From: a virus
Lineage: Duplodnaviria > Caudoviricetes
Strand: one strand, 5' to 3'
IMG/VR virus record: IMGVR_UViG_3300027808_003251
Location: 1-40,987 of that record
DNA length: 40,987 nt
Part shown: in pieces, positions 2,720 through 37,385 of the stretch
Layout of the letters: each line of letters opens with the position of its first letter
How positions within the stretch are numbered: the first letter of the stretch is position 1
Made by a program: the position numbers and the translations under genes
Notes under the pieces: model-generated
What the model saw: the letters and a program-made list of their open reading frames with translations, nothing else
What the model was told of the DNA's origin: nothing
Databases searched by the model: none

Positions 2720-3070
2720 CTGGGTGTTTTTGATCACAGCGCCATCCCACCCATCAGGCAATACTGATTCTTTGAGTTTTTTTATACGATCTAGTAGAGT
2801 TTGATAGAAACTGTCAACTTCCCCGTTCCATTTTCCCAGTAGTGCACTAATGGCTTTTTCACAGTAATCCCAGTGCTGTAGACGATAATTTTCAATTACA
2901 TCTGCATGTAGTTTGATGTGTGCATCAATCAAGGGAAACTCTTGTAATGGTATTTTTTCTATCACACAGTAGGCTGTGACTCGGGTACCGTTGGTATCAA
3001 TTGTGTCAAGTTCTAGTACTGTATAGCTGTTGGGGATTTCTTTAACGGCCTCGCCAAAAATAATGTGCAT
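2717..3070 (-). CDS. Hypothetical protein resembling the C-terminal tail of class III adenylate/guanylate cyclases
   Basis: ELDTI..NG..VTAY and Y..Q.WD...Y..L.DRI...LP.GWDGAV..T recall the cyclase C-terminal extension; no catalytic core present. AAGGA SD. Confidence 0.4.
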   Translation of the reverse strand: MHIIFGEAVKEIPNSYTVLELDTIDTNGTRVTAYCVIEKIPLQEFPLIDAHIKLHADVIENYRLQHWDYCEKAISALLGKWNGEVDSFYQTLLDRIKKLKESVLPDGWDGAVIKNTQ

Positions 3071-3091: not shown

Positions 3092-3883
3092 ATGATGACA
3101 TTCAGCTTTGATTTAATTTCTGATTTACACGTTGATACCTGGCCACGTTTTGACTGGACCGGTATTGCCACTAGCCCTGTCGCTGTGGTTGCAGGGGATA
3201 TAGCCATGGATCGCAATGATCTGGTGGAGGTACTCTCACACCTGGGTAAAAACTACCAGGCTGTGTTTTACATTGATGGAAATGATGAGCATACCAATTA
3301 CCTGGATAATTTAACCTACAGTTATGCCGATTTAGTAACTCGTCTTGAAACAATACCCAATCTAGTGTATCTTCAAGACAATGTTGTGGTGATTGATGGT
3401 GTTGCTATACTGGGTACCAATGGATGGTTTGGATTTGATTTTGACCCAAACATAGATCCCACGCAGTGTGCTCAGTGGTACCAAAATAAATTTAACCTAA
3501 CAGGCGACACAGTGAAAACCATCAGCAGAATGGCCACAACCGATGCCATGTACATGATTAACTCTGTGAAACGATTACAAACACATCAGGATGTCAAAAA
3601 GATTGTGATGGTAACCCATACTGTGCCGGATCCGGTGCTGATCAGTCATGACATCAATCTAGAAGCGACCTGGCGATTTAACACCATGGGCAACCAACTC
3701 ATGCGACAGGCTCATGCAGTGGATACTGAGAAAAAAATTCACACCTGGTGTTTTGGACATTACCACAGTGCTGTGGATCAAGTTCGCAACAATGTGCAAT
3801 ATCTTAATCACTGCCGAGGTCGTGGCAATACTGACTACGGACAGCATGTGTACTATCCGCGTCGAATTTCTGTGGAGTTTTAG
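3092..3883 (+). CDS. Calcineurin-like metallophosphoesterase
   Basis: SDLH, AGDI, GNDE, THT and FGHYH metal-binding motifs. Confidence 0.85.
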   Translation: MMTFSFDLISDLHVDTWPRFDWTGIATSPVAVVAGDIAMDRNDLVEVLSHLGKNYQAVFYIDGNDEHTNYLDNLTYSYADLVTRLETIPNLVYLQDNVVVIDGVAILGTNGWFGFDFDPNIDPTQCAQWYQNKFNLTGDTVKTISRMATTDAMYMINSVKRLQTHQDVKKIVMVTHTVPDPVLISHDINLEATWRFNTMGNQLMRQAHAVDTEKKIHTWCFGHYHSAVDQVRNNVQYLNHCRGRGNTDYGQHVYYPRRISVEF

Positions 3884-4188
3884 GCCTGATCAGGTTCAAG
3901 TTTGATCTGTAAAGGGTAGCTGTTACTTCTAGCTGCCAGGGTTACTTCGATACCTTTTTGTTCGGCAATCTCATATGGCAATACCGCAACGCATGCTGAT
4001 CCAGCATTGTGAATGTCTTCAGTAATGGTAAACGCTGTGTCAGTAGTGTAATTAAAAAATTCAATCAAGGTTTCAATCACAAATTCCATTGTGGTTTGGT
4101 TATCATTTAGATAGATTACCTTGTACATTGGTGGCTCTTTGAGTTGTTCACTTGGTTTGATTTTTGTACGTGTTTCTGATTGTGACAT
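3880..4188 (-). CDS. clpS: ATP-dependent Clp protease adaptor ClpS
   Basis: PPMYKVIYLNDNQTTMEFV...IHNAG.A....PYEIAEQK...YPLQIKLE. Confidence 0.92.
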   Translation of the reverse strand: MSQSETRTKIKPSEQLKEPPMYKVIYLNDNQTTMEFVIETLIEFFNYTTDTAFTITEDIHNAGSACVAVLPYEIAEQKGIEVTLAARSNSYPLQIKLEPDQA

Positions 4189-4202
4189 AATTTTCCCTGT
4201 TG

Positions 4203-4233
4203 CAGTGGCAGCACCTCGCTGCCACTGTATTTA
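4203..4233 (-). promoter_or_regulatory. Late promoter TAAATA followed by a perfect 10-bp hairpin upstream of clpS
   Basis: TAAATA at 4228-4233, then CAGTGGCAGC-gaggt-GCTGCCACTG; no U-tract after it on the minus strand. Confidence 0.5.
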
Positions 4234-4243
4234 CACTATTATA

Positions 4244-4702
4244 TTAGGAAGTGTAGGTGATAGCAATGGCCTTTGGCTTGGCTTCTTCGGGTATTTCACG
4301 CTTTAGGTGAATACTTAGGATACCAAGTTCAAGATGTGCTCCGGTAATTTCCACGTGATCCGCTAGTTGGAATTCTCTACGGAAACTACGCTCACTGATT
4401 CCTTTGTGCAGGTATTTTGCAGTCGAATCTTCATTCTTTACAGTTTCACGGCTGTGCTTGCCTTCAATAACCAAGATTTTTTTGTCCTTGGTTACTGCAA
4501 GGTCATCGTATCCAAATCCAGCCACAGCCACTGAGATCATGTACTCGTCGTCATTAACTTGTACAATATCATAAGGTGGATAGTTTGTTGAGCTTTGTTG
4601 AGCACTCACCCGCATGAGATCATCAAACATGTTATCGAAACCGATACCAAATTTAGTGAGTGAGGGAATGTCGAAAGAACGAAGGGTAAGAGTTTTTGTC
4701 AT
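4244..4702 (-). CDS. Small heat-shock protein (Hsp20/IbpA-like)
   Basis: IGFD, NYPPYDI, AVAGF, YLHKGISERSFRREF and GILSIHL..IPE motifs; AAGGAG SD. Confidence 0.95.
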   Translation of the reverse strand: MTKTLTLRSFDIPSLTKFGIGFDNMFDDLMRVSAQQSSTNYPPYDIVQVNDDEYMISVAVAGFGYDDLAVTKDKKILVIEGKHSRETVKNEDSTAKYLHKGISERSFRREFQLADHVEITGAHLELGILSIHLKREIPEEAKPKAIAITYTS

Positions 4703-4765
4703 TTGTTTTCTCCTTTATTAAGCAAGATGACTTGTAATGTAGCCCCACTATGGGCACTACAAACA

Positions 4766-4796
4766 TATTTATACAGGAAATCTCAACTGTTGTCAA
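4766..4796 (-). promoter_or_regulatory. Overlapping sigma70 promoter (TTGACA-17-TATAAA) and T4-type late promoter (TATAAATA) for hsp20
   Basis: -35 at 4791-4796; -10 at 4768-4773; TATAAATA at 4766-4773. Confidence 0.7.
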
Positions 4797-5011
4797 GACT
4801 TTTGGATATTTTTTATTGTGTAATCACATGCCGTCCAGGTCATAGTAAAAAGAGTAAAATGTTCCGGGTGATTTAGACCAAGTCGATATTTTAAACCTTT
4901 GGCAACTTTGGTTGTGTAAGGTACCTGGTGACGCCGAGCCCAGGCACTGACTGTATTTTTGAGACTATCGAAACTGTCCATGCTTGTGACAATGTCAAAC
5001 TCTATGTACAT
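4793..5011 (-). CDS. Hypothetical protein (72 aa)
   Basis: TAATG-coupled to the bS21 stop; fills the operon slot. Confidence 0.6.
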   Translation of the reverse strand: MYIEFDIVTSMDSFDSLKNTVSAWARRHQVPYTTKVAKGLKYRLGLNHPEHFTLFTMTWTACDYTIKNIQKS

Positions 5012-5235
5012 TAGAACTGTTTTTTAGGCAACTGTTGTTCGCGTAGTTTTTTATTCCAACGATTCTTGGCAGCACTTGCTTTTAGTTTGCGTTGGGTTGT
5101 GGGTTTTGTGTAGAATTCACGGTCTCTAAGCTCGTTTAACAAACCTGTTTCTTGTATTTTCTTCTTGAATTTACGCAGTGCTCGGTCTACGTTGCCATCT
5201 GTTACCAGGACTGATCTGCCGTGTAATTTTTCCAT
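5011..5235 (-). CDS. rpsU: 30S ribosomal protein bS21 (phage-encoded)
   Basis: V.V.DGNVDRALRKFKKK....G...ELRDREFYTKPTTQRK signature; TAAATA at 5260-5265 upstream. Confidence 0.92.
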   Translation of the reverse strand: MEKLHGRSVLVTDGNVDRALRKFKKKIQETGLLNELRDREFYTKPTTQRKLKASAAKNRWNKKLREQQLPKKQF

Positions 5236-5242
5236 GGGTTTG

Positions 5243-6433
5243 TTACAATTCCTTTGGACTATTTACCAGGTTTTGATCAATATCTACATGGCTGATGCCA
5301 CTGGTACGATAACGTGCTAGATTGTACATGTGCGGCATTAGCACACGTTCTAGCTCACTGTGTAGTCCACGTGCACCTGTTTTGTTTTTAAGTGTGCGTT
5401 CAGCAATAAGATCCAAGCTGTCAGATGAGAACTCAAGATCCACTTCATCTTGTTTGAACAACCACTGGTATTGACTCACATAGTTGTGTTTTACTTCTTT
5501 GAGAATACGCACAAGGTCTTTTTTGTCCAGTTCTTTGAGTGCAACCCAGGCAGGAAATCTGCCTACAAATTCAGGAATCAATCCAAATCGCACAAGATCA
5601 TCAGGGCTGGTTTTATCAAGATGTACATCGCTGGCTGTTTTAGTTGACACATCTGCTCCAAAGCCAATGCCGGTGCCTTGCACACGATTCTTAACAATGT
5701 TGTCTAGCCCCACAAACGCACCGCCTGCAATAAACAAAATATTGCGTGTGTCAATTTCCACAGTGTCCCCGCCTGGATGTTTACGACCACCTTGTGGGAT
5801 AATACGGCACTTGGTGCCTTCTACCAGTTTTAACAATGCCTGTTGTACACCTTCGCCCGACACATCTCGTGTGATGCTGGTGCTTTCGCTCTTTCGACTA
5901 ATCTTGTCAATTTCGTCCACAAACACAATACCACGTTGTGTTTTTTCAACATCGCCGCCGGCGGCAGCATACAAGCGACTGATCAAACTTTCCACATCAT
6001 CGCCTACATAACCTGCTTCGGTCAAACTGGTGGCATCAGCAATCACAAACGGCACATCTAGATAACGTGCCACTGTGCGAGCCAGCAAGGTCTTGCCCGA
6101 ACCTGTGGGACCAAGCATGAGGATGTTGGCTTTTTCAATTTCGGTATTGATATCTTTGTTGCGAATACGTTTGTAGTGATTGGCAATGGCCACACTCAGC
6201 ATGACCTTGGCAGCATCTTGCCCAATAACATACTGGTCAAGATGATTTTTAATTTCTCTTGGATCAAGATTGGCTTCTTCAGACTTGGCTTCTGGCTGAT
6301 CTACCAGTAGTGTCTGGCACAGGTCCACGCATTCATTGCAGATAGCAACGTTTTCACCCACAATTAGTTTTGTTACTGCATCTTTGTGCTTGCCGCAAAA
6401 ACTGCAGGTGCTGAGATTTTCATTTGATTTCAT
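5243..6433 (-). CDS. clpX: ATP-dependent Clp protease ATP-binding subunit ClpX
   Basis: C4 zinc domain (CSFCGK...CNEC), Walker A GPTGSGKT, GYVG pore loop, DEIDK, RKH loop, IGF loop, GARGL. Start moved to ATG 6433. Confidence 0.96.
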   Translation of the reverse strand: MKSNENLSTCSFCGKHKDAVTKLIVGENVAICNECVDLCQTLLVDQPEAKSEEANLDPREIKNHLDQYVIGQDAAKVMLSVAIANHYKRIRNKDINTEIEKANILMLGPTGSGKTLLARTVARYLDVPFVIADATSLTEAGYVGDDVESLISRLYAAAGGDVEKTQRGIVFVDEIDKISRKSESTSITRDVSGEGVQQALLKLVEGTKCRIIPQGGRKHPGGDTVEIDTRNILFIAGGAFVGLDNIVKNRVQGTGIGFGADVSTKTASDVHLDKTSPDDLVRFGLIPEFVGRFPAWVALKELDKKDLVRILKEVKHNYVSQYQWLFKQDEVDLEFSSDSLDLIAERTLKNKTGARGLHSELERVLMPHMYNLARYRTSGISHVDIDQNLVNSPKEL

Positions 6434-6437
6434 TGTA

Positions 6438-7958
6438 TTATTTTGTTTTGGCTTGTAAACGTTGCGCCACTTGTTCTTGTTCACCTGGATTTAAAAGTTC
6501 AGGATCATATTCACCAGTGGCAATTTTATCAATCAAATGATCAATATATGCTGTATCGTAAGTATAGTTATCTACTGTAGATTTGTCAACTAAAATCCAG
6601 ACGTCACCGTTGAATTTGTACAGTTGGTTAGGAATCACGTCTGTTTTGACAAAACTATCACCACGGTCGGGTGTGAGTGGGAACGCAGGGCCAAAGCTGG
6701 AATTAGGAGCAGGTTTCAAATACTGTAACCAAGGAAGCTCAGTAATTATACCTTTGGCCAATTTAATACGCTGATTTTTTAATGTGTCGTCTGGGTTGAG
6801 AGTTTTCCAAAGGCTCTTGGCCTCTTTGATTTCTGGAGTATCTTCGGGATCAAACGGATCAAAATTAATTACTTGCTGTGTGGCAGCTACAGATTTCACT
6901 GGTGCTGTCACAGTCTCTGACTTGGCAACTATGGGTTTGAGATTTTCAAAATGCACAAATGGTTTGTCCAAGTATGCATGACGACTGCGGTCAAACTCTG
7001 TTTTTAATTCTTCAACTTCTTCTTCGGTTGAAGGATATGTTGTTGTGGTAGTGGTGTACATCCAACCTGGAGGTGATGGGTCTGCATGTATCCTCCAACT
7101 GGGTTTGTCTGCTGTTTCTTTTATCTGTTCAATTTGTTCATCAGTCAATGGTCCATCATCTGGAGGATATGCAGGTTCGTCGTGTACAAACCCTCCCCGG
7201 CCTTGTCGCGCCCATTCAAATTGTTTGCTGGCAGCAAGAATAAGTGTAAGCGCCAGTGGATCAAATACCAACACAATCAATATAATGACAAAACGCACTG
7301 CTTTTTCCAACACATTGGCATCAGGATTATCTCCGTACACCAATGCCGCAATGTATTTTATAGGACCAACCTCTGCTTCAATCTTGCGGAACTCTGCCGC
7401 CAACGGTGCTCGCGCTTCATTAAGCTCAGTAATTGTTTTCTGTTCGGCTGAGATTTCAGCAAGGAGACGCCCACGTTCCTTTTGTTGAGCCCTACGGAGA
7501 GCCACGGATTTATCTGCCCCCGTTTCTGATGTACTTCGGCCCATGACTTGATCAACTGCCTCGTCCATTTGTTTAAGCGCCTTGCGATTGACATCTATAT
7601 TCTCCCGAGCAGTTTTAATTTTTTCATCATATATAGCAACCTTGCTCATTGAATCGCCTGATACCAGACTTTGATCCGAATGTGCCTTTGACAGGTATCC
7701 AAAGATGCCCATTGATGTCAGCAACATAAGAAATGCCACAGCAGGTATCAAATACATTTTGAATGCCCAGCCGGCTCGTTTCCAGTTGTTGTGCAACCAC
7801 ACTGTGGCCACAATCTTGCCAAGCTCTAAACTGCCACCCATGATGATCACAGGTATTGCCGCCGCAGAGAAGATTGCAACTAGGCCTGCTACTGAATAAT
7901 AAGCGGCTACCAAGCTCAGTAGCAGAGCTGTGGCCAATATGCCGAAACCAAATATCAT
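6438..7958 (-). CDS. Membrane-anchored coiled-coil protein
   Basis: Three N-terminal hydrophobic helices, a long coiled coil, a fourth TM (FVIILIVLVFDPLALTL) and a soluble C-terminus; TAAATA 6 nt before the ATG. Confidence 0.75.
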   Translation of the reverse strand: MIFGFGILATALLLSLVAAYYSVAGLVAIFSAAAIPVIIMGGSLELGKIVATVWLHNNWKRAGWAFKMYLIPAVAFLMLLTSMGIFGYLSKAHSDQSLVSGDSMSKVAIYDEKIKTARENIDVNRKALKQMDEAVDQVMGRSTSETGADKSVALRRAQQKERGRLLAEISAEQKTITELNEARAPLAAEFRKIEAEVGPIKYIAALVYGDNPDANVLEKAVRFVIILIVLVFDPLALTLILAASKQFEWARQGRGGFVHDEPAYPPDDGPLTDEQIEQIKETADKPSWRIHADPSPPGWMYTTTTTTYPSTEEEVEELKTEFDRSRHAYLDKPFVHFENLKPIVAKSETVTAPVKSVAATQQVINFDPFDPEDTPEIKEAKSLWKTLNPDDTLKNQRIKLAKGIITELPWLQYLKPAPNSSFGPAFPLTPDRGDSFVKTDVIPNQLYKFNGDVWILVDKSTVDNYTYDTAYIDHLIDKIATGEYDPELLNPGEQEQVAQRLQAKTK

Positions 7959-7963
7959 AGTGT

Positions 7964-8284
7964 TTATTTACCGGGATTTTTTATCACTATCACGGCGTGC
8001 TTTACCGCACACCAGGTAGCAAACGACGGATCTGGCACTTCAAACCAAACGTGGTTTTCAGGTCTATTTCTTTCCCATGCAAACTTATCTAGTCTACGTT
8101 TGACTCTGGGCTGACCACGCCAGCCATCTCGGCCATATAGTGTTGTGGCTTCTCTCATGATTGCGTACCAAGTTTCGGTATCACGCAGATCAAACCAAAT
8201 ACGGTGCATGATCAAGGGCGTTGATTCAAGCGAGCTGAGTGACGCAGACATGCTCAACGCAGAGGTCTCTGTTTCAACAGACAT
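7964..8284 (-). CDS. Hypothetical protein (alternative start ATG 8209, MHRIWF...)
   Basis: AAGGA SD before 8284; Trp-rich globular part starts at the second ATG; the 5' part overlaps the structured RNA. Confidence 0.65.
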   Translation of the reverse strand: MSVETETSALSMSASLSSLESTPLIMHRIWFDLRDTETWYAIMREATTLYGRDGWRGQPRVKRRLDKFAWERNRPENHVWFEVPDPSFATWCAVKHAVIVIKNPGK

Positions 8285-8463
8285 TAAAAATATCCTTTCA
8301 CTGTGTTAATCCCTAATGAGCATACTCCCGGGTATCAATCGGGGTTTGGACGAATCCAGGGACAGTGTCGCAACCTATGTGACTTATGTTCACATGCCAC
8401 GGTAGTAGCAGGCCTAGGAACCCCGCCACACCATTGAACAGCACCATCTCCCTGATCATGCTC
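8206..8463 (-). ncRNA. Putative structured non-coding or leader RNA (unassigned family)
   Basis: Starts at the predicted TSS of a perfect sigma70 promoter; several GC-rich stems whose mismatches are G-U only on the minus strand; 12-bp 5'/3' closing stem (8450-8461 with 8206-8217). Confidence 0.6.
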
Positions 8464-8467
8464 TATA

Positions 8468-8496
8468 ATTATAACGCCATGATCCAGTACTGTCAA
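8468..8496 (-). promoter_or_regulatory. Perfect sigma70 consensus promoter TTGACA-17-TATAAT
   Basis: -35 at 8491-8496; -10 at 8468-8473. Confidence 0.88.
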
Positions 8497-8509
8497 CAAG
8501 TCTGGCTAA

Positions 8510-8992
8510 TTACGTTGGGAATGGCCAGTTGTTGCTGGCAGTGGGGCGAGTCTTTAGTTTAATATTTTCTTTGATCACGGTGCCATCATCTTCACACAAG
8601 TCAACTTGATATGGTGCAATGATGTGTACTGCGGCATCTTCTTCAGACCAATCGTGTTCGCCATCATAGAGCCAACCTGCACCACCTTCGTAGTAAAGTT
8701 CTTTGAGTTCCTGTTGTTCTAGTTCACCAATATCATCGCTGAACTCCCACTCAACACTAACACTGTCATCAAACTCACAACCCCACCCTGCGTCTGTTCG
8801 AGCATAGGCTATTTTATCGCCTTCCCAGGGTAGATTGCAATCTAGGTCGCCCTCGATAAAACCTTGTCCCCAGCGATAGGTTTCGTCAATGTTGAACCAA
8901 CTAACACTGTCATCCGGATTCTTACGATACATTTCTACATGGTAGACAATGCTTTTCTTTTCCAATGGTCTGATTAGATATACTTTACTCAT
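8510..8992 (-). CDS. Acidic hypothetical protein (paralog of the upstream gene)
   Basis: Start moved to MSKVYLIRPLEKKS; D/E-rich; YRWG motif shared with 8985-9398. Confidence 0.7.
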   Translation of the reverse strand: MSKVYLIRPLEKKSIVYHVEMYRKNPDDSVSWFNIDETYRWGQGFIEGDLDCNLPWEGDKIAYARTDAGWGCEFDDSVSVEWEFSDDIGELEQQELKELYYEGGAGWLYDGEHDWSEEDAAVHIIAPYQVDLCEDDGTVIKENIKLKTRPTASNNWPFPT

Positions 8993-9398
8993 CTTTGCCC
9001 TCGTATACAACATTGCCTTCTTCATCGGTCAACTCCAATGGACCTTGTAAAATGTAATCTGTGTCACTGTTTGACCAACCCAGTTCTTCCATGCCGTCAA
9101 AGTAATCTTCATCCCAGGCGGTTTCGATAGCCGCTTGTTCTTCTTCCGTCATGTCATCAGGGAATGTCCAATCAGCCCAGCATCCATCGTCAAGGCTTGA
9201 TAGTTCCCAATCATAGTCGCTTTCGCTTAGATTGTATTCTCCATCTTCTGGCTCAATAACAGGTTGTTCATCGCTTTCGCAATAGAACTCGCCCCAGCGA
9301 TAGCCTTCTTCACGAATGATTGTTTTGCCGTCTTTGTACCAGAACTGCTTTTCAACCGCAGACTTTTTGTGTAGAGTTTTGAGTGTCCAAGTTGCCAT
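8985..9398 (-). CDS. Acidic hypothetical protein
   Basis: Start moved to ATG 9398 (TAATG coupling); D/E/W-rich; YRWG motif. Confidence 0.7.
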   Translation of the reverse strand: MATWTLKTLHKKSAVEKQFWYKDGKTIIREEGYRWGEFYCESDEQPVIEPEDGEYNLSESDYDWELSSLDDGCWADWTFPDDMTEEEQAAIETAWDEDYFDGMEELGWSNSDTDYILQGPLELTDEEGNVVYEGKDE

Positions 9399-9622
9399 TA
9401 CAACCACCTTAATGCAAATAATGTGTAGAAATCTTTTCTAACAGTTTCGAACTTAAACGGATTAAGTGGTGATGGACGTTCTGAATACCAGGATGTTAGA
9501 CCCCAATTAACATGATCATAACTGTCGTGTGACGGACCAAAATGTTCTTCGCACCAGTCATAAAGTACATCTTTTCCCACCATGCGTCCTGGATAACAAC
9601 TATAGATTGTTTCGGTTTCCAT
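9398..9622 (-). CDS. Hypothetical protein (WC.E.FG...F.LRW small phage family)
   Basis: Fits the operon; pattern typical of small large-phage proteins. Confidence 0.6.
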   Translation of the reverse strand: METETIYSCYPGRMVGKDVLYDWCEEHFGPSHDSYDHVNWGLTSWYSERPSPLNPFKFETVRKDFYTLFALRWL

Positions 9623-13419: not shown

Positions 13420-13464
13420 TTACTATACAAGTATTATAGCAGAATGGGATTTATTGGTCAACCA
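13420..13464 (-). repeat. Early promoter cassette, copy 1 (TTGACC-17-TATAAT, extended -10)
   Basis: 45-bp direct repeat of 13751-13795 with 1 mismatch; -35 at 13456-13461, -10 at 13433-13438. Confidence 0.9.
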
Positions 13465-13750: not shown

Positions 13751-13795
13751 TTACTATACAAGTATTATAGCAAAATGGGATTTATTGGTCAACCA
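13751..13795 (-). repeat. Early promoter cassette, copy 2
   Basis: -35 at 13787-13792; -10 at 13764-13769; 17-bp spacer. Confidence 0.9.
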
Positions 13796-24446: not shown

Positions 24447-25763
24447 TTAGTTTAAATCTATGAGGCCTGTGGAAATATCATATACTGGTAAAATGATATC
24501 GGTATTATTAAAATGAGTGTGGTAAGTTTGCTGATCGGCATGCGTAAGCAGTCCATACAGTTTAGAATTCAAATCAAAACTGTTTGTGCCGGTTCTTTTG
24601 TCGTAATCAGCACTGAATTTTAAGTAGTCATCAAATATTGATCTAGGTGCCACTTTAGTTGACTGCAACAATAACAGCATGCTTTTAAAGTATTCATGTT
24701 GCACTTTGGTTGTGGCATACTTTGTGAAAAAAGGATGTGCTACTGCTGTTTGCAAAATCAAAATCAGGTGTGGTCTATATTCCGACGGCAATGATTCTAC
24801 CATCAACGCCAGTGGACGATTTATGTGTGTGGTTTGCAACCAAATTTCTATGTTGTTTTCGTTACACCAGTTGTACCAATAATCTAACCATTCTACTACG
24901 TAGAATATGTTGTTAAGACTGAATACTGGTGTTATCAATAGATCGTATTTGCTGGGATAGTTTTTCCTAACATACAAAAATTCATCTAGGCTTGATTGTA
25001 CCTTGCTGAATTTTGCAGGCCAACGAACATAATGATAGTTTTCATTTATGCTGTCAATGCTGGCTAAGAAAAATATATTTCTAAACTGTAACAATTTATC
25101 ACGCAACTCTTCAAGATTAACCACAAGGCTTGTGGTGATTCGAATGGAGGTGGTGGCAGCTAGACCTTGATCAATCATCCAGTCTAGTAGTTTAATAAAT
25201 CCAGCTTGTAGCATGGTTTCTCCACCAATGGGATGAAGAATAAAATTATCAGTTTGTCTGTGTTTGTCAGCAATCATGGCAGTCATTTGCTGCCAATACA
25301 TGTCATTGTCCGAGATATCCACATCCAATCCAGGTTCTGACGGCACCCGCATTTTTTCCGACCAATAACTGCTGTCAAAACTGTTGCAACTTCTGCAGGC
25401 CAAATTACAACGATTAGAAAATTTCATACCGACCTGAAGATCAGCTGGTTTTTTATCCTGTTCAAACTTGATCAACTGTTCAGGAGAGAAGTCTATTAGA
25501 TATTTGATTCGTTCGCTTTGTGCACCATTTTTTTCAATTGTGCCGCACAGGTGACAGGCTGCTGGCAACTTTTTGTTTTCAATGTCTGTTTGTAAACTGT
25601 TTATGAATTCATTATCTAATTCTAATTCAGTGTACGTGGTATCAAGATTACAACAAACTGTTATTTTTAATTTTTCTTGCTGAATTCTATAATCATAATT
25701 GTTGTAAGGACTTGCACACAGATGGGGACGATCCTTGATCCACTGTATTTTGTTTTCAATCAT
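24447..25763 (-). CDS. Radical SAM protein with N-terminal SPASM/twitch-like Cys cluster
   Basis: CNLACRSC and GGET; N-terminal C...CC...CHLC. Confidence 0.88.
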   Translation of the reverse strand: MIENKIQWIKDRPHLCASPYNNYDYRIQQEKLKITVCCNLDTTYTELELDNEFINSLQTDIENKKLPAACHLCGTIEKNGAQSERIKYLIDFSPEQLIKFEQDKKPADLQVGMKFSNRCNLACRSCNSFDSSYWSEKMRVPSEPGLDVDISDNDMYWQQMTAMIADKHRQTDNFILHPIGGETMLQAGFIKLLDWMIDQGLAATTSIRITTSLVVNLEELRDKLLQFRNIFFLASIDSINENYHYVRWPAKFSKVQSSLDEFLYVRKNYPSKYDLLITPVFSLNNIFYVVEWLDYWYNWCNENNIEIWLQTTHINRPLALMVESLPSEYRPHLILILQTAVAHPFFTKYATTKVQHEYFKSMLLLLQSTKVAPRSIFDDYLKFSADYDKRTGTNSFDLNSKLYGLLTHADQQTYHTHFNNTDIILPVYDISTGLIDLN

Positions 25764-26087
25764 TTAAACTCTGAAACTTTCTCCACATCCACAGCGGTCA
25801 CGTTCGTTCTTGTTGATAAACTCAAATCCTTCATTGAGTCCGTTGCGCTTGAAGTCTATGATCATGCCGTCAAGATAAGGTATATTTTTGGGATCTACAA
25901 ATATTCTAATTCCATTGCTATCGTAATGTCTAACACAATGCAAATTGGGATTATCTACATATTCTAGCACATAAGCCAGTCCTGAGCAACCTGTGGTTCT
26001 AACGCCTACCTGAATGCCTTCGCCACGTCCACGTTTGGCAATGCTCTTTAAGATTTTATTGGCAGCTACATCTGTTACAGAGATCAT
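25764..26087 (-). CDS. iscA: A-type Fe-S carrier IscA
   Basis: TTGCSGLAY and CGCGESF motifs. Confidence 0.93.
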   Translation of the reverse strand: MISVTDVAANKILKSIAKRGRGEGIQVGVRTTGCSGLAYVLEYVDNPNLHCVRHYDSNGIRIFVDPKNIPYLDGMIIDFKRNGLNEGFEFINKNERDRCGCGESFRV

Positions 26088-26983
26088 ACCGCAACGTCGT
26101 CTTTCTTCCAGTTCTTTTTCAAAGTGGTAAAAGTGATAGGCTTGTAGTCATAAGATTCAGGACAGAATTTGCATTGATCAATCATGTTGTCAATATTGCC
26201 CAAGAATTCGGCACCACGGGTGTCAAATTCGTCAATGCCCAAGGGTTGGTAACCTCTCATTAACAATCGATCTTCGTCAGAGATATCAAATTGATACTGA
26301 TCATCAAATTCAGGCATCAAGGCAGCTGGGCCACACTTGTAAATTTTACCACGGATCATGTGATAGTTTTTAAAGCGAGCAAATGCACAGTTGTCATGTG
26401 CCTTGACAGGATCACTGTTGTACAAGCCAAATCGTCCATTGGGCAATTCCAAGATGTTGCTTTGCACAAACTTGTTGCTCATCCAGGCATGCACGTAGTT
26501 TTTGTTTACATCGGTAAACTGAAAGTCCGACCCAATGGGGTGCGTGGGATCGCTGGTTTCCACAATAGGTGCTGTTAGAAAGTTTCTAATACGTGAAAAG
26601 ATTTCTTCTTTGTCGTCAGGATTGTGTATGCTGATGCCAATCCAGTGTCCTTGGCCGTTGCCCAGGGCTTCGTACAAGCCTTTGACTTTGTCAATGCGTG
26701 TGCCGTTGCTTTGTATCTGTACACCTGAATGATCAGGCCACAGTCGTTTTAAGCCTTCTACCCACTTGTTGATTTCTGGATTGAGCAAAGGCTCACCACC
26801 AAGTATAACAGGGTGACGGATGTCAATTTTCTCTGCCCAGCGTTCTAGTATGGGACCATATTCATCCCAACTTTGCCATCCAGAGAATTTATAATTGTTG
26901 TAGCGATTACAGCCAGTGCAGGTCAGGTTACAAACGTTTGTAACATAAAATTCCAGTTTATCAATTAAGATGCGTTGTGTCAT
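26084..26983 (-). CDS. Radical SAM protein
   Basis: CNLTCTGC and LGGEPLL; C-terminal C...YKC...CKFC. Start moved to ATG 26983. Confidence 0.88.
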   Translation of the reverse strand: MTQRILIDKLEFYVTNVCNLTCTGCNRYNNYKFSGWQSWDEYGPILERWAEKIDIRHPVILGGEPLLNPEINKWVEGLKRLWPDHSGVQIQSNGTRIDKVKGLYEALGNGQGHWIGISIHNPDDKEEIFSRIRNFLTAPIVETSDPTHPIGSDFQFTDVNKNYVHAWMSNKFVQSNILELPNGRFGLYNSDPVKAHDNCAFARFKNYHMIRGKIYKCGPAALMPEFDDQYQFDISDEDRLLMRGYQPLGIDEFDTRGAEFLGNIDNMIDQCKFCPESYDYKPITFTTLKKNWKKDDVAV

Positions 26984-27353
26984 GTTTCTTTCTGTAGTCT
27001 TCAACTGCGGCCTTGATAGCATCCTCCGCAAGAATACTACAGTGTATTTTTACAGGAGGCAGAGCCAGTTCTTCAGCAATTTCAGAATTTTTAATCTGTG
27101 AAGCATTATCTAATGTCATGCCTTTGACCATTTCAGTAATCAAGGAACTTGATGCAATGGCTGACCCGCAACCATATGTTTTAAATTTTGCATCTGTAAT
27201 TATTCCATCCACCACTTTGATTTGTAATTTCATTACATCTCCGCAAGCAGGTGCGCCAACCATACCAGTACCGATATCAGTATCGCTCTTGTCAAAAGAT
27301 CCGACGTTCCTGGGATTTTCATAGTGATCTACAACTTTTTCTGAGTATGCCAT
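26961..27353 (-). CDS. iscU: Fe-S scaffold protein IscU
   Basis: MAYSEKVVDHYENPRNVG, APACGD, GCGSA and LPPVKIHC motifs. Start moved to ATG 27353. Confidence 0.96.
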   Translation of the reverse strand: MAYSEKVVDHYENPRNVGSFDKSDTDIGTGMVGAPACGDVMKLQIKVVDGIITDAKFKTYGCGSAIASSSLITEMVKGMTLDNASQIKNSEIAEELALPPVKIHCSILAEDAIKAAVEDYRKKHDTTHLN

Positions 27354-27354
27354 A

Positions 27355-27657
27355 TTATTGTGTACAAGTTCTTTCTCGGTATGTTTGACCATCCGGTGTT
27401 TGGATTTCTTTCCAAGGTGTGCAATTCTCTTGCAGTTGTACAATTACAGGCTGCCGTTGAACAAACACAGTTTCTGCTTGCGCAGGACGATTGGCAATTG
27501 CGGCACCTACCACACCACCAATGATGATGGGAACAACCCAGTTGCCATGACCATAGTGTCTGGCATGACCGTGATGTCTGTGGCCATGATTCCAGTGTTG
27601 TGCCAGTACAGGCACAGTGACCATTAACAATGCTAGTGAAATTAAGATCTTTTTCAT
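27355..27657 (-). CDS. Secreted His-rich glycine-zipper protein
   Basis: Signal peptide (MKKILISLALLMVTVPVLA), His-rich stretch, GGVVGAAIA, two C-terminal Cys; AAGGAG SD. Confidence 0.75.
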   Translation of the reverse strand: MKKILISLALLMVTVPVLAQHWNHGHRHHGHARHYGHGNWVVPIIIGGVVGAAIANRPAQAETVFVQRQPVIVQLQENCTPWKEIQTPDGQTYRERTCTQ

Positions 27658-27675: not shown

Positions 27676-27704
27676 ATTATACTATATATAACGCCTGCAG
27701 TCAA
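27676..27704 (-). promoter_or_regulatory. sigma70 promoter TTGACT-17-TATAAT heading the iscU operon
   Basis: -35 at 27699-27704; -10 at 27676-27681. Confidence 0.8.
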
Positions 27705-33502: not shown

Positions 33503-34525
33503 TTATTTAGTATTTGTTGGTAGGATAATTTGTTCTGCTGCCTTGGGAAAAACTTCACGCCAGTTAGTTCCACGACGTTGATCTATCTTGCCAAGATGTT
33601 CAATAACAATGTCATGAGCACTGGCTGCAGACAATGGTCCAAACGCCGAACTTAATTTGTGCTTTATTAGTCGACCCAGATTATCATGTTTAAAATTTGT
33701 TGCAAACCAGTCAGTGATTTCGTCAACGTAGTATTGGCTTAAAACATTTATAGTACTGTTGATTCCGTAGCGGGCATTTTCTCCGCAGTTGTTGATCATC
33801 CATTGAAAATTCTCTACAGTTTGTGTCCAGTTTGCTGGATATCTGATATACTCGTATCTTGGGCCAATATCGTCCAAACTACAATAAACGTCAACTTGAT
33901 TACATTCTTTCCATACTTCTAGCAATTCTGGACTGGGCTGTACTGTACCATTGGTGGTATAGTATAAAGTAACCTTTGATTTGTTTGGTAGTGCTTGTAG
34001 AAATTCCACGTGTTCCTTACTGAGAAACGGTTCACCGCCCCATAAATGAATAATTTCTATGTGACTTAAATCTAAGTTTTTCCAGGCGCGATTTACTATA
34101 GATTTTTTTTCGTCTTTGATAACTCCAAGTTCTTGTTTCCACAAACTGCTGTTATTAGGACCACACATGATACAGGCTAAATTGCAAATGTCGCCGACCC
34201 AGTAATCCATTTTTGTTAGTTCAACTGTGGGAATATCTCCAGGCCGAATTGGAGTGTTATTCCATGCCCATTTGTCAGCGGCGATTTGTTTGCGGCTGGG
34301 GAACCCTTGACTTTCCATTTCAGTACACGATTTACATCCAGCTGGCGGAGTTCCATCAATCCATTGTTGTCGGATGTTGACCAAGTTGGCATTGTTTACA
34401 AAATCTACAGTTTCAGCCTGGGCCAATGGATATATGCAACATGGAGCAATAGCAGGTTTATTGTTACGGAATTCAATGCTGAGATTTTTAAATGGCTCTA
34501 GGCAAACAGTGTTAGTATTATTCAT
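33503..34525 (-). CDS. Radical SAM protein with N-terminal SPASM/twitch-like Cys cluster
   Basis: CNLACIMC and GGEPFL; N-terminal C...CC...CKSC. Confidence 0.88.
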   Translation of the reverse strand: MNNTNTVCLEPFKNLSIEFRNNKPAIAPCCIYPLAQAETVDFVNNANLVNIRQQWIDGTPPAGCKSCTEMESQGFPSRKQIAADKWAWNNTPIRPGDIPTVELTKMDYWVGDICNLACIMCGPNNSSLWKQELGVIKDEKKSIVNRAWKNLDLSHIEIIHLWGGEPFLSKEHVEFLQALPNKSKVTLYYTTNGTVQPSPELLEVWKECNQVDVYCSLDDIGPRYEYIRYPANWTQTVENFQWMINNCGENARYGINSTINVLSQYYVDEITDWFATNFKHDNLGRLIKHKLSSAFGPLSAASAHDIVIEHLGKIDQRRGTNWREVFPKAAEQIILPTNTK

Positions 34526-34594
34526 TTGTATTATTTAGTGGGTGCAAAATTCTAATAAATATCTATTACTGCTTGCAAAGCAAAAGGAACAATA

Positions 34595-36259
34595 ATGACC
34601 AGTCAGATCAACCCAGAGAATATAGATGCTTCGTATCCGGTGGCCGGACAACCCAATAATACGCAAGGCTTTCGTGACAATTTCACCAACACCAAAGTCA
34701 ACTTTCAGTATGCTGAGGACGAAATCAACGACCTTCAGAGCAAAGCTGTATTAAAGGCCGCACTGACTGGTACCACATTAGATAACAACATGAATGATGC
34801 GCTGATTTATGCAGCCAAAATTCAAGACTTTTCAGCCACGTCAGTTGCTATCACTGCCACAGCAGGATCTATTGTGGTGGATTACAGTGCAGGACACTAC
34901 CAAACTATTTCAACAACAGGCAACATCAATGTCAGCATTGGCAATTTCCCAACTGCTCCGGCTTTTGGATATATTAAACTACAACTGGTAATAGATGCTC
35001 CTGGTAGAACTGTTACATTCTCGGGCATGACCACACTGTATGGCACCACAGGTGTTCAAGGCATGATAGGTAATACCATTACATTTGCTGCCACTGGCAC
35101 ATATGAGTTTGCATTCCAAACCAATAGTGGTGGCACAACTGTCACCATGTTTGATCTAAACAGACCGTTAAATTACTATACTAATTCAGTTACTATTGCC
35201 GGCAGTCTTTCTGTTAGTGGCAACATAGTTGGTAACATAGTTACTACTACACAAACATTCACAGGAAATCTAACAGGTGGAAATTTGCTTACAGCCGGAT
35301 ATGTAACAGCAACTGGCAATGTGACTGGTGGTAATATAGTAACTGCTGGCAATATCAGTGGCTCACACTTTATTGGTAACGGAAGTCAGTTGACTGGCAT
35401 AACAGTTTCCAGTGGCACCGCTATTACAAATGGCAGTAGTAATGTAATTGTTGCTGCCAATAGCAATGTAACCATTGGGGTCGCAGGCACATCAGATATT
35501 GTACATTGGTCCAGCACCGGTGAATATGTCACTGGTCTGATTAGTGCTACTGGCAACATCTCTGGTGGTAATTTATCAACCAATGGTAATATTATTGCTG
35601 GAGGGTATGTGCTTGGTAACGGTGCATTATTAACAGGGGTGGCAGCATCCACAAATATTGTGTCAGGCACCACACAAATGGCAATTGAGTTACCAAGTGG
35701 AAATATACAAGCAACCATTGGCGGTACTGCCAACGTGGTAGTAATTTCCACATCAGGGCTTGGTGTTGCTGGATTTTTAGCAGCTACCGGCAATCTAGTT
35801 GGAAGTAATGTCAGCACAGTTGGGTTGATGACTGCAACTGGCAATGTAACTGGAGGTAACCTACGCACTAGTGGATTAATCAGCGCCGCTGGCAATATCA
35901 CGTCGGGCAACGTTGCCGTGACTGGAAATGTTAGTTTAACTGCCAATGTTATCGCCGGTAATTTAACAACAGGTTCACAAGTGGTTGCACTAGGTAATGT
36001 AACTGGCGGCAATATCAGAACTGACGGACAAGTGCTTGCAATGAGTGCTACTGCTATTCCGGCTGGCGGCTCAGCAGGTGCAGGCTATCAATTTTCGACC
36101 ACTGCAAACTTTGGTGTGTTCTTTGGATCAGGTGTGCCCACACTAAGTGCCGCTCAGGGATCGTTGTACCTGCGCAGTGACGGCAGCACAACCAATAATC
36201 GAATGTATGTCAACACCAATGGCACCACTGGATGGACTGCGGTTACAACTGCTAGTTGA
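34595..36259 (+). CDS. Tail fibre/virion structural protein with GNVTGGN repeats
   Basis: Repeated ATGNVTGGN-type units; YPVAGQPNNTQGFRDNF N-terminus; TAAATA at 34556-34561 and AAGGA SD. Confidence 0.8.
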   Translation: MTSQINPENIDASYPVAGQPNNTQGFRDNFTNTKVNFQYAEDEINDLQSKAVLKAALTGTTLDNNMNDALIYAAKIQDFSATSVAITATAGSIVVDYSAGHYQTISTTGNINVSIGNFPTAPAFGYIKLQLVIDAPGRTVTFSGMTTLYGTTGVQGMIGNTITFAATGTYEFAFQTNSGGTTVTMFDLNRPLNYYTNSVTIAGSLSVSGNIVGNIVTTTQTFTGNLTGGNLLTAGYVTATGNVTGGNIVTAGNISGSHFIGNGSQLTGITVSSGTAITNGSSNVIVAANSNVTIGVAGTSDIVHWSSTGEYVTGLISATGNISGGNLSTNGNIIAGGYVLGNGALLTGVAASTNIVSGTTQMAIELPSGNIQATIGGTANVVVISTSGLGVAGFLAATGNLVGSNVSTVGLMTATGNVTGGNLRTSGLISAAGNITSGNVAVTGNVSLTANVIAGNLTTGSQVVALGNVTGGNIRTDGQVLAMSATAIPAGGSAGAGYQFSTTANFGVFFGSGVPTLSAAQGSLYLRSDGSTTNNRMYVNTNGTTGWTAVTTAS

Positions 36260-37384
36260 TTATAGATATCTACTGTAAAAGTCCACAATATCAGGAAAGG
36301 TTTTCTTCCAATCCTGACCTCTTAAGGCGTCAAATTTTTCAGTTTGTGTTATGAATCTTTTTATGGCTTTGGGATTTTCTTTCCAATTGTCACCAATGGT
36401 ATGAATCTGTTTGGTGCCTGCTAACGCATTTGCATATTCTTGTGTGATGTGTCTGACATCAAGATACTCATGGGATGCCAATTGTGCGCTATAATTAACT
36501 ACATCCCCTTCTCGATTAGAGTTAAAGTTTTTACTGACCCAGGTAGAAACTTCATCAAAATAAAACAAATTTAAACAACTGATAGTCTCTTGAACCATAA
36601 ACATCACATTACTCGGCAAAGATTGGCGTAGTTCTAAAATGTTGTTTGCAACTTGATTCCAGTCAGCTGGCCAACGCAAATATTCAAATCTATTTTGAGT
36701 ACTGTCCATGCTAATCATTAGTTTTACTAATTTAAATTTTTCAATAATATCAAAATATTTAGGGTCAATGGGTTGAGTCCCGTTGGTTTGAAAAACCAAC
36801 TGCAATCGATTTTTAGCATCAGGCACCAATTTACTTAGAAGGTTGGCAGTATGCCAATAGGTATTACCCATCAGAGTTTCACCGCCACAGAATTGAACCA
36901 TTTCAAGATTTGTAAGATCTAAATTTCTTAACATCTGTTCAATTTTAAACAGATTATCAGTTGCCGGAAAAGATGCTGTGTAAAGATTGTTGTCTTTAAG
37001 ATGCTTGGTCCAGAATGTACTAGAGTGTGGTCCACATATTCTACATGCTAGATTACAATTTCGATCAAATAATAAATCAATACGTTGTGGACCAGTTAAG
37101 TTTTGTTTGACTCCAAATTTGTCAATCATGGCCTGCCTAAAACTTCTTGATCCAGCTTTTTCCAAACGTTCACACTGCCAACATTCAGGATGCCATTCAT
37201 TACGATTATTTTTTTCTCGTAGTTGCTGTAAGTTTTCGTGGTTCCAGTCAACTGTTGATTCATCTGACAGATTTAGACTATTTGTACTTAAACAACATTG
37301 ATTGTATGTTAATTTATTAGTAGAATTTTTAATATCGATGTTGAGCCCACCATGAATCATTGGACAATAAATGTTGTTTTGCAT
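36260..37384 (-). CDS. Radical SAM protein with N-terminal SPASM/twitch-like Cys cluster
   Basis: CNLACRIC and GGET; N-terminal CP...CC...CWQC. Start moved to ATG 37384. Confidence 0.88.
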   Translation of the reverse strand: MQNNIYCPMIHGGLNIDIKNSTNKLTYNQCCLSTNSLNLSDESTVDWNHENLQQLREKNNRNEWHPECWQCERLEKAGSRSFRQAMIDKFGVKQNLTGPQRIDLLFDRNCNLACRICGPHSSTFWTKHLKDNNLYTASFPATDNLFKIEQMLRNLDLTNLEMVQFCGGETLMGNTYWHTANLLSKLVPDAKNRLQLVFQTNGTQPIDPKYFDIIEKFKLVKLMISMDSTQNRFEYLRWPADWNQVANNILELRQSLPSNVMFMVQETISCLNLFYFDEVSTWVSKNFNSNREGDVVNYSAQLASHEYLDVRHITQEYANALAGTKQIHTIGDNWKENPKAIKRFITQTEKFDALRGQDWKKTFPDIVDFYSRYL

Positions 37385-37385
37385 A

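Follow-up and report, generated by a model that had tools for sequence, protein, structure and literature searches.

Covariation points to an uncatalogued structured phage RNA lying over the candidate translation starts of a small basic protein

Among the described systems that come closest to the RNA considered here are autoregulatory operators, such as the S4 alpha-operon and S15 pseudoknots and that of T4 gene 32, and translational riboswitches, such as SAM-II, SAM-III and preQ1, in which the Shine-Dalgarno sequence lies inside the aptamer. New RNA folds as large and conserved as the present one are rare, and they have often proved to be riboswitches, ribozymes or RNA-only assemblies. Among ornate RNAs, GOLLD and ROOL are carried by phages, and ARRPOF, of 255 nucleotides (nt), is dimeric, according to the sections consulted of the papers describing them (10.1101/2024.12.08.627333; PMC12990946). 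In the levivirus MS2, upstream sequence pairs with the Shine-Dalgarno sequence and a metastable hairpin delays this pairing, leaving a window for translation before folding, as stated in the part of the source consulted (PMC4615214). Here, a 256-nt RNA is described on the minus strand of a 40,987-nt stretch of viral DNA, hereafter the window (positions 1 to 40,987 of IMG/VR record IMGVR_UViG_3300027808_003251; Caudoviricetes), where it begins behind a sigma-70 promoter and runs into the gene of a 106-residue protein, ORF106. Comparison of homologous loci establishes, at the level of sequence, the fold, the way it overlaps each candidate start of the gene, and its fixed link to ORF106. Like OLE, GOLLD, ROOL and ARRPOF, so far as the consulted portions of their descriptions go, it is a multi-helix pseudoknotted RNA of unknown function; unlike them, it matches no Rfam covariance model.

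Homologous loci (cited below as L plus a number) were gathered through the ORF106 protein and, independently, through RNA-only patterns. The early collection held 177 loci, 12 of them too short upstream, and its 119 distinct regions were reduced to 63 sequences at less than 90% identity, which were aligned as A3; counts of homologues given below refer to these 63, and a second alignment, A6, comprises 14 divergent alleles. In a blind covariation test with its own tree-based null, ten of 47,895 column pairs reached E<1, three of them E<0.05, and nine of the ten belong to the final model of 71 pairs, the strongest match being 8443/8380 in helix P2. Two-sided change is seen at 50 of the 71 pairs, and 94.1% of the cells are paired, against 83.8% in shuffled alignments and 30-43% when the partners are slid. 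The model was built from the same 63 sequences on which it is scored, so this scoring favours it; as a guard, switches were counted on a tree made from DNA outside the RNA. On this tree, between 4 and 12 independent Watson-Crick switches are found at 20 of the 23 helix pairs tested; the two pairs from the pseudoknot have a single switch each, and one pair of P8 has two. Among the 14 divergent alleles of A6, the pseudoknot, P8, P10 and P11 are paired in 13-14, and in 11 of them the pseudoknot has changed to GGCU/AGCC. Model R1, an automatic 22-pair structure distinct from the 71-pair model, gives 91 bits to L501, a locus outside its training set. About 20 unpaired bases are also near-invariant. 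The segment 8463-8206 folds with a minimum free energy of -91.9 kcal/mol (z -3.0), equalled by only three of 200 shuffles, and folding is stronger on the minus than on the plus strand (-91.7 vs -74.4). An earlier note, made from the window sequence alone, had proposed a multi-stem RNA at this place, and both the covariation and the folding energy bear it out, though with a partly different fold. A structured RNA at 8461-8206, real and conserved in diverse homologues, is thus indicated by covariation; its features are collected in Table 1.

Comparison with known families assigned it to none. Rfam 15 gave no match at the gathering threshold in the window or in 20 homologous loci; at E<=10 the window returned only a fungal small nucleolar RNA on the wrong strand (E 2.5) and the divergent L407 returned nothing. 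ARAGORN found no transfer RNA (tRNA) or transfer-messenger RNA (tmRNA) in the window or in 32 loci. A tmRNA was rejected on this ground and because the reading frame continues for 80 codons beyond the fold, and sequence words recalling RNase P, tmRNA PK1, the T-box and the flavin mononucleotide and c-di-AMP riboswitches occur in the wrong order or lack the required pairing. The 2023 survey by Fremin et al. reportedly holds more than 10,000 unnamed candidates. A literature search found no description of the RNA, which supplements of PMC10690425 outside that search might list unnamed, and four supplementary files of Fremin et al. 2023 (PMC10690425) contain no match for its motifs or sample numbers. 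Nor did the searched literature yield an oligomerising ornate RNA that both carries and regulates the start of the gene of its own partner. On these comparisons the element is an uncatalogued structured phage RNA, akin to structured leaders or to ornate RNAs, and the earlier proposal of an unassigned phage RNA tied to a small Trp-rich protein is upheld by the conserved fold, the lack of an Rfam family and the link to ORF106.

In the model, P1 encloses the whole fold and is followed by the long P2-P3-P4 arm and then by a four-way junction of P8, P5, P9 and P10, closed by P8. P1 is the 12-base-pair (bp) helix over AUG 8209 that had been read from the single sequence and joins the 5' end to codons 23-27, and each of its four tested pairs switched independently 5-11 times; P8 pair 8370/8231 switched 12 times. 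In P9, pair 8293/8281 is A-U in 41, U-A in 18 and G-U in 4 of the 63 homologues, with 8 switches. The P5 domain is the worst-aligned region, with P5a 80% and P5b 86% paired, and the UGGUAC-like loop of P7 is variable (UGGUAC in 25, UGAUAC in 12, none in 16 and other words in 8 of 61 scored). Only half of the six hairpin stems drawn earlier stood up to comparison: GGUGUGGCGGG/CCUGCUACUACC and CCCG/CGGG are supported, as is UGGA/UCCA with 3 bp and a UUCG loop that is not conserved. The other three have key positions paired in 16-56% of homologues and 0-3 switches at tested pairs: CAGGGA..UGGUG/CACUGUCCCUG is paired in only 19 of 63, 25 of 63 and 19 of 62, AUGUGA/UCACAU in 10 of 61 at 8392/8380, and GCGUUGA/UCAACGC in 11 of 56 and 35 of 63, with no compensatory switch at 8256/8222. 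On these counts, the three are artefacts of reading one sequence. A similar fate befell the suggestion that the 5' end alternates between P1 and UAUGCUC. That second pairing is made at invariant bases alone, its flanks pair in 20 and 22 of 63, and it is disrupted by an A at 8322 (present in 12 of the 14 divergent alleles, reading UAAGCC), the A at 8459 being unchanged, so there is no evidence for a two-state 5' end; UGCU at 8322-8319 pairs instead with GGCA at 8398-8395 in the pseudoknot.

The promoter had been recognised correctly: TTGACA-17-TATAAT at 8496-8468 is the only 12/12 sigma-70 match in bases 1-40000 (the range scanned, the last 987 bases lying outside it), and its TTGAC is retained in 56 of 63 homologues. 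The conserved 5' GCAUG begins 6 nt (52 homologues) or 8 nt (11) past the -10 box, and because of this spacing the transcription start site (TSS) is likely to lie at about 8461, within the 8461-8463 first proposed. The interval between promoter and gene, 8285-8509, does lack a conserved open reading frame (ORF), as claimed; the rest of the window is not otherwise gap-free, since 2513-2716 forms a second gap of 204 nt.

Translation of ORF106 most likely starts within the fold. In the window the start used is most likely AUG 8284 (AUG1) and not AUG 8209 (AUG3), because the Shine-Dalgarno sequence and AUG 8284 are retained in 63 of 63 homologues and because the distance from AUG1 to codon 26 is 72, 75 or 78 nt, divisible by three each time, in all of 166 loci, a set retrieved with a profile covering the N-terminus, which favours alleles with the AUG1 frame. 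The Shine-Dalgarno sequence is paired with codons 1-2 in P9 (63 of 63 at three positions), AUG2 lies in P11/P12 and AUG3 in P1, so that the Shine-Dalgarno sequence and all three candidate AUGs touch helices. Every start used by RNA-bearing alleles does the same. L411 has AUG1 alone and L432 and L501 have AUG2 alone, and therefore translation must start within the fold in these three. Alleles L406, L407, L409, L410, L413 and L417-L419 (around positions 2800-3045), together with L432 and L501, keep the fold although their Shine-Dalgarno sequence and first AUG are lost; they have a second-AUG frame that lacks a Shine-Dalgarno sequence and follows a CUCU word. The suspicion that RNA structure constrains the first 25 or so codons proved justified, as synonymous difference is 0.23 in codons 2-27 and 0.49 in codons 28-106 (p 1e-7, 63 sequences), a halving, and at codons 8 and 21 the third position stays fixed though the amino acid varies. 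In the consulted account, the 5' untranslated region of the levivirus maturation gene is likewise a conserved leader of a phage, one in which folding conceals the ribosome-binding site. Unlike in MS2, the Shine-Dalgarno sequence here pairs locally with codons 1-2 and the long-range helices use codons 16-27; also unlike it, as far as that account goes, the RNA has a pseudoknot and a four-way junction and belongs to a DNA phage, and no conserved transient hairpin was found in it.

The loop of P4b carries a palindrome that probably lets the RNA dimerise. Its central adjacent bases, 8416/8415, read CG in 29, UA in 18, UG in 8, AG in 4, CC in 2 and CA in 1 of 62 homologues, with 11 parsimony switches, and since adjacent bases cannot pair within one molecule this covariation points to dimers. 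The same argument was used for OLE L9.3 and GOLLD L21a by Kretsch et al. (10.1101/2024.12.08.627333), where, in the portion consulted, a self-complementary loop likewise covaries at adjacent bases. That U-G is tolerated and C-A is not is more in keeping with pairing of RNA than with a DNA operator. A strict six-base palindrome is found in 53 of 58 P4 arms, against 25.6 +/- 3.8 after dinucleotide shuffling (the sequences are related, so this is not a probability), and the distant L432 and L501 have CCCGGG in the same loop. The cofold energy, -9.5, barely differs from that of shuffles (-8.1). In many A3 homologues other than the window, an inserted P4b loop bears a second palindrome (AUCGAU, GUCGAC, UUCGAA, UAGCUA or AGAUCU). 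In addition, an element bearing a palindrome of ten bases (CCUGGCCAGG) is present between P1 and P2 in L400-L404, L411 and L431, just after the P1 5' strand; it is possibly a second dimer route or a short hairpin-like insert.

The reading favoured here, at a little under an even chance, is that the fold, covering the ribosome-binding site and the first 27 codons, acts as a translate-or-fold switch. A ribosome loading at AUG 8284 on the nascent RNA would strip the 3' strands of P10, P8 and P1, and ORF106 would be made, probably along with the coupled 506-residue protein encoded next. A transcript missed by the ribosome would close the fold, be translationally off and persist as a stable RNA, probably dimeric through the palindrome. 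In the weakest step, ORF106 would bind the folded RNA and favour the off state, giving negative feedback.

Several observations weigh against such a switch. Opening the AUG1 footprint is computed to cost 5.2 kcal/mol in the nascent RNA and only 6.9 kcal/mol at full length (mean of 63, pseudoknot energy not included), a small rise that lends the kinetic window little weight. No covarying alternative 'on' conformer turned up among the five earlier alternatives tested, others not having been searched exhaustively. The fold is retained in eight alleles that lack both the Shine-Dalgarno sequence and AUG1 and hence is not built around a single ribosome-binding site; the reading frame of all eight begins at the counterpart of AUG 8251, in seven of them past an in-frame stop, and P9-P11 persist. 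The roughly 20 near-invariant unpaired bases exceed what simple occlusion needs. The palindrome is absent from L008 and the L406 group, which makes its loop accessory to the core. Syntenic L450, L453 and L454, on contigs 4-8% complete, keep the protein with its conserved residues and have no RNA. The proposed RNA-binding protein has a generic fold match, its best structural hit being a V-ATPase subunit domain with Z 6.8 (root-mean-square deviation 2.8 A over 71 aligned residues) and none reaching Z 8. Finally, ClpX, further downstream, has its own near-consensus promoter, so control may not extend to it.

Some of these points speak for the strongest rival, a possible explanation that we nonetheless doubt: a stable, probably dimeric 'ornate' non-coding RNA (ncRNA), serving as scaffold, decoy or ligand sponge and cut from the transcript, in which the ORF start is incidental because the RNA is situated between the promoter and an AUG that was once leaderless. 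The fold survives where codons 1-11 are non-coding, many unpaired bases are invariant, and the palindromes of the P4 arms recur in L432 and L501. L453 and L454 (around 2960-3010) have a TTGACA..CATAAT promoter and, 6 nt later, ATG-CAC; they appear leaderless, which would place the RNA between a promoter and a possibly leaderless start. A weak hint comes from the RNA-library contigs of runs X8, X11, X12 and X17 (four studies), which cover parts of 8218-8449 as separate pieces. Against an independent RNA, no terminator follows it, the 12-27 in-frame codons within the fold would be costly, and two scans with RNA-only patterns never found it without ORF106. It stands near tRNA genes in none of 32 loci, unlike ornate RNAs, and differs from these, so far as their accessible descriptions show, in having one candidate intermolecular contact only and a translated ORF that begins within the fold. 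Equally doubtful is a combination in which one transcript has two fates, serving as an mRNA with its translation start within the fold or as a dimeric, pseudoknotted ncRNA that has a ligand-binding or catalytic core and is assembled with the small protein encoded by it.

The link to ORF106 is close throughout the viral contigs scanned. The RNA-pattern scan, which covered 47 of 64 parts, gave at least 118 matches; among the matches listed, 96 fit the RNA profile, 94 of them with the ORF and two cut by the contig end. Conversely, the RNA is present in 167 of 170 distinct full ORF-bearing loci. For L450, L453 and L454 it was not found elsewhere on the same short contigs, and that it was lost twice is only suggestive, as the protein tree is a quick one with 61 of 94 branches unresolved. 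Two near-complete genomes have a single copy each of RNA and ORF. A pattern scan of GTDB genomes, with a pattern that recovers 40 of 63 known members, returned 105 matches, 103 of which lack the RNA profile and the ORF alike; the two real ones, L342 and L394, are contigs of one Haliscomenobacter bin, each with RNA and ORF, and are probably phage contigs in that bin and not host evidence. A search with the distant protein P0143 gave no locus.

This fixed setting bears on the notion of a riboswitch or thermosensor, in which a metabolite, an ion or temperature would open or close the fold and so control the proteostasis run behind it (ClpX, bS21, HSP20, ClpS). The 5' position after a strong promoter fits, as do proteostasis-related genes downstream and, as in SAM-II, SAM-III and preQ1, a Shine-Dalgarno sequence within a conserved helix (P9) beside conserved junction bases. 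Unlike those riboswitches and most riboswitch classes, the RNA has a single gene context and no Rfam match; no metabolic gene or other ligand clue accompanies it, 27 codons lie inside the fold, the sequence is too conserved for a typical thermometer, and ClpX has a promoter of its own, so that this explanation is unlikely.

The locus is represented in RNA libraries, in runs picked because they hold this stretch and labelled as riverine, freshwater or lake; the assembled contigs carry no strand, end or level information. Contigs lie over the fold in six of eight runs (X1 7775-8449 in one contig, X8 8218-8424, X11 8267-8449, X12 8253-8424, X14 8138-8351, X17 8233-8425), with no joints, and X3 shows traces only and X9 none. 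The deepest contigs of X8, X11, X12 and X17 lie within the fold, but contig depth does not rank parts of a gene, a conserved RNA pools many strains, and none of this amounts to proof of a discrete RNA. The contig ends at 8449 (seen in two studies and carrying adapter) and at 8218 coincide with the borders of the P1-enclosed part, which library effects explain equally well. A new ribozyme cutting itself at or in P1 and freeing a short-leader or leaderless mRNA might stop contigs at 8449, the first base past the P1 5' strand, and would suit the pseudoknot, the invariant junction bases and the leaderless look of RNA-less alleles. It is improbable, given that the RNA has no known catalytic core and no match to an Rfam ribozyme or intron, that adapter-bearing ends at 8449 would equally arise from a library loss of about 12 nt off a TSS at 8461, and that the eight runs contain no joints and in-frame starts upstream of AUG3 are conserved.

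ORF106 itself belongs to a family of 86 representatives at 50% identity. Residues 1-22 have a predicted local distance difference test score (pLDDT) below 50, and the core, residues 24-106, is modelled (pLDDT 92) as a ferredoxin-like domain into which a helix is inserted. The protein has an isoelectric point of 8.9 and a grand average of hydropathy (GRAVY) of -0.48, the core has an isoelectric point above 9 in 98% of 189 homologues, and W, Y, R and K residues are invariant or near-invariant. The basic core is compatible with nucleic-acid binding. No match was found in Pfam, PHROGs, NCBIfam or PDB sequences, nor in GenBank phages by tblastn. In structure searches ACT, HMA and ribosomal-protein chains are level at Z 5-6 and Foldseek gives E>=0.024; no RNA-binding family rises above the generic ferredoxin-like background, which does not itself rule out such a family. 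The ESM Atlas returned only unnamed viral clusters (0.87-0.88), RF3_C at 0.76 being at chance level. The nearest viral structures to the model are many small uncharacterised phage proteins, which suggests that ORF106 belongs to a large paralogous fold family. The small ORFs 9398-9622 and 4793-5011 show a Trp/Phe pattern recalling ORF106.

The S4, S15 and T4 gene 32 operators resemble this locus in that structure covers the beginning of the first cistron and the unit encodes a small basic protein. The present fold is larger and more conserved than theirs, ORF106 is not a ribosomal protein and belongs to no known family, and its binding is only proposed; bS21 is dispensable for the RNA (L027, L028, L078). 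The nature of the protein also bears on a type I toxin-antitoxin-like locus, which the long-range 5' pairing that silences a small ORF would recall, as in type I toxin mRNAs. ORF106 is soluble, basic and globular in the model and not a small hydrophobic membrane toxin, and the only plus-strand promoters facing 8206-8461 are chance-level 9/12 sites at 7816 and 7931, some 250-400 nt off. Neither for an antitoxin nor for an RNA polymerase decoy, both raised in the earlier note, did any support turn up. Conservation through protein constraint alone would leave unexplained why the third position is fixed in codons 8 and 21, and two thirds of the fold lie outside coding sequence. Covariation largely refutes both of these ideas, which have scarcely any likelihood left.

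Downstream, the gene for the 506-residue protein begins 5 nt past the ORF106 stop, has no Shine-Dalgarno sequence and is possibly translationally coupled to ORF106. It opens a conserved proteostasis run at 3880-7958, which continues with ClpX, bS21, a 72-residue ORF, HSP20 and ClpS. The RNA is kept where bS21 is missing, ClpX leading straight to the next gene (L027, L028, L078), or where ClpX is missing (L413). In the portion consulted, a paper on bS21 phages (PMC9723584), which probably covers another clade, does not mention ClpX. Further 11/12 sigma-70 sites stand on the minus strand at 6561-6589, 13433-13461, 13764-13792 and 27676-27704, the first within the 3' end of the 506-residue gene, directly ahead of ClpX. 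Two adjacent acidic ORFs of 171 and 140 residues (8510-9407; mutual identity 27-33%) are often directly upstream of the RNA promoter.

The window is a 41-kb piece of a large phage and encodes DNA ligase, ribonucleotide reductase, helicase, Bax1-I, ClpX, bS21, HSP20 and ClpS; relatives occur on viral contigs as long as 364 kb. The stretches 24447-27443 and 33503-37429 hold genes for Fe-S assembly (IscA-like, NifU-like) together with three of the radical-SAM type, and a Shine-Dalgarno-like word precedes 19 of 39 window genes. The top PDB chains for its bS21 are 7unr, 6spe and 6v39, which we take to be from Pseudomonas and Acinetobacter; on that basis a proteobacterial host is a guess.

Table 1. 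Positions of the RNA, its helices and the accompanying genes in the window
Feature	Positions	Strand	Basis or frequency
Entire structured RNA (256 nt; 15 helices, one of them a pseudoknot)	8206..8461	-	covariation, 63 homologues
P1 5' strand; partner 8206-8217	8450..8461	-	97.5% of cells paired, 9/12 pairs with two-sided change
P1 3' strand; contains AUG3 (8209-8207), start of the folded protein domain	8206..8217	-	covariation; structure model
Arm of P2 (8447-41/8383-77), P3 (8439-35/8392-88), P4 (8433-31/8402-00) and variable hairpin P4b	8377..8447	-	covariation
Pseudoknot 5' strand GGCA, in P3/P4 loop	8395..8398	-	99.6% paired; GGCU/AGCC in divergent alleles
Pseudoknot 3' strand UGCU, within P5 domain	8319..8322	-	pairing with GGCA 8398-8395
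Palindrome CCUAGG, P4b loop; predicted RNA-RNA dimer contact	8413..8418	-	adjacent-base covariation
P8 5' strand GCGA; partner UCGC 8233-8230 (codons 18-19)	8368..8371	-	63/63 paired at 4 positions
P5a/P5b domain; encloses hairpins P6, P7, invariant AAAC and G-UA, pseudoknot strand	8299..8367	-	covariation
Hairpin P9 (8295-92/8282-79) with Shine-Dalgarno AAAGGA (8298-8293) and AUG1 (8284-8282)	8279..8298	-	covariation
Coding-region arm P10, P11, P12; contains AUG2 (8251-8249)	8234..8278	-	96-100% paired; retained in 8 alleles with non-coding sequence ahead of AUG2
Sigma-70 promoter TTGACA-17-TATAAT; likely TSS about 8461	8468..8496	-	motif scan; conserved in alignment A3
ORF106; residues 1-22 of low confidence (likely disordered), then basic ferredoxin-like domain of no known family	7964..8284	-	structure model, profile searches
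506-residue protein, hydrophobic, likely membrane-spanning N-terminus; no known family	6438..7958	-	follows ORF106 in 75/76 loci
ClpX; own 11/12 promoter 6589-6561	5243..6484	-	74/76 loci
Ribosomal protein bS21	5011..5235	-	54/76 loci within 3-kb flank

Natural variants separate the features of this locus, the first AUG, the palindrome and the entire RNA each having been lost in some alleles. With a deep covariation-backed model, a candidate protein partner and a length of 256 nt, the RNA can be readily transcribed and tested. Such work would reveal either how large lake phages tune a gene run leading toward their own ClpX and bS21, or a small, tractable, dimerising phage RNA.

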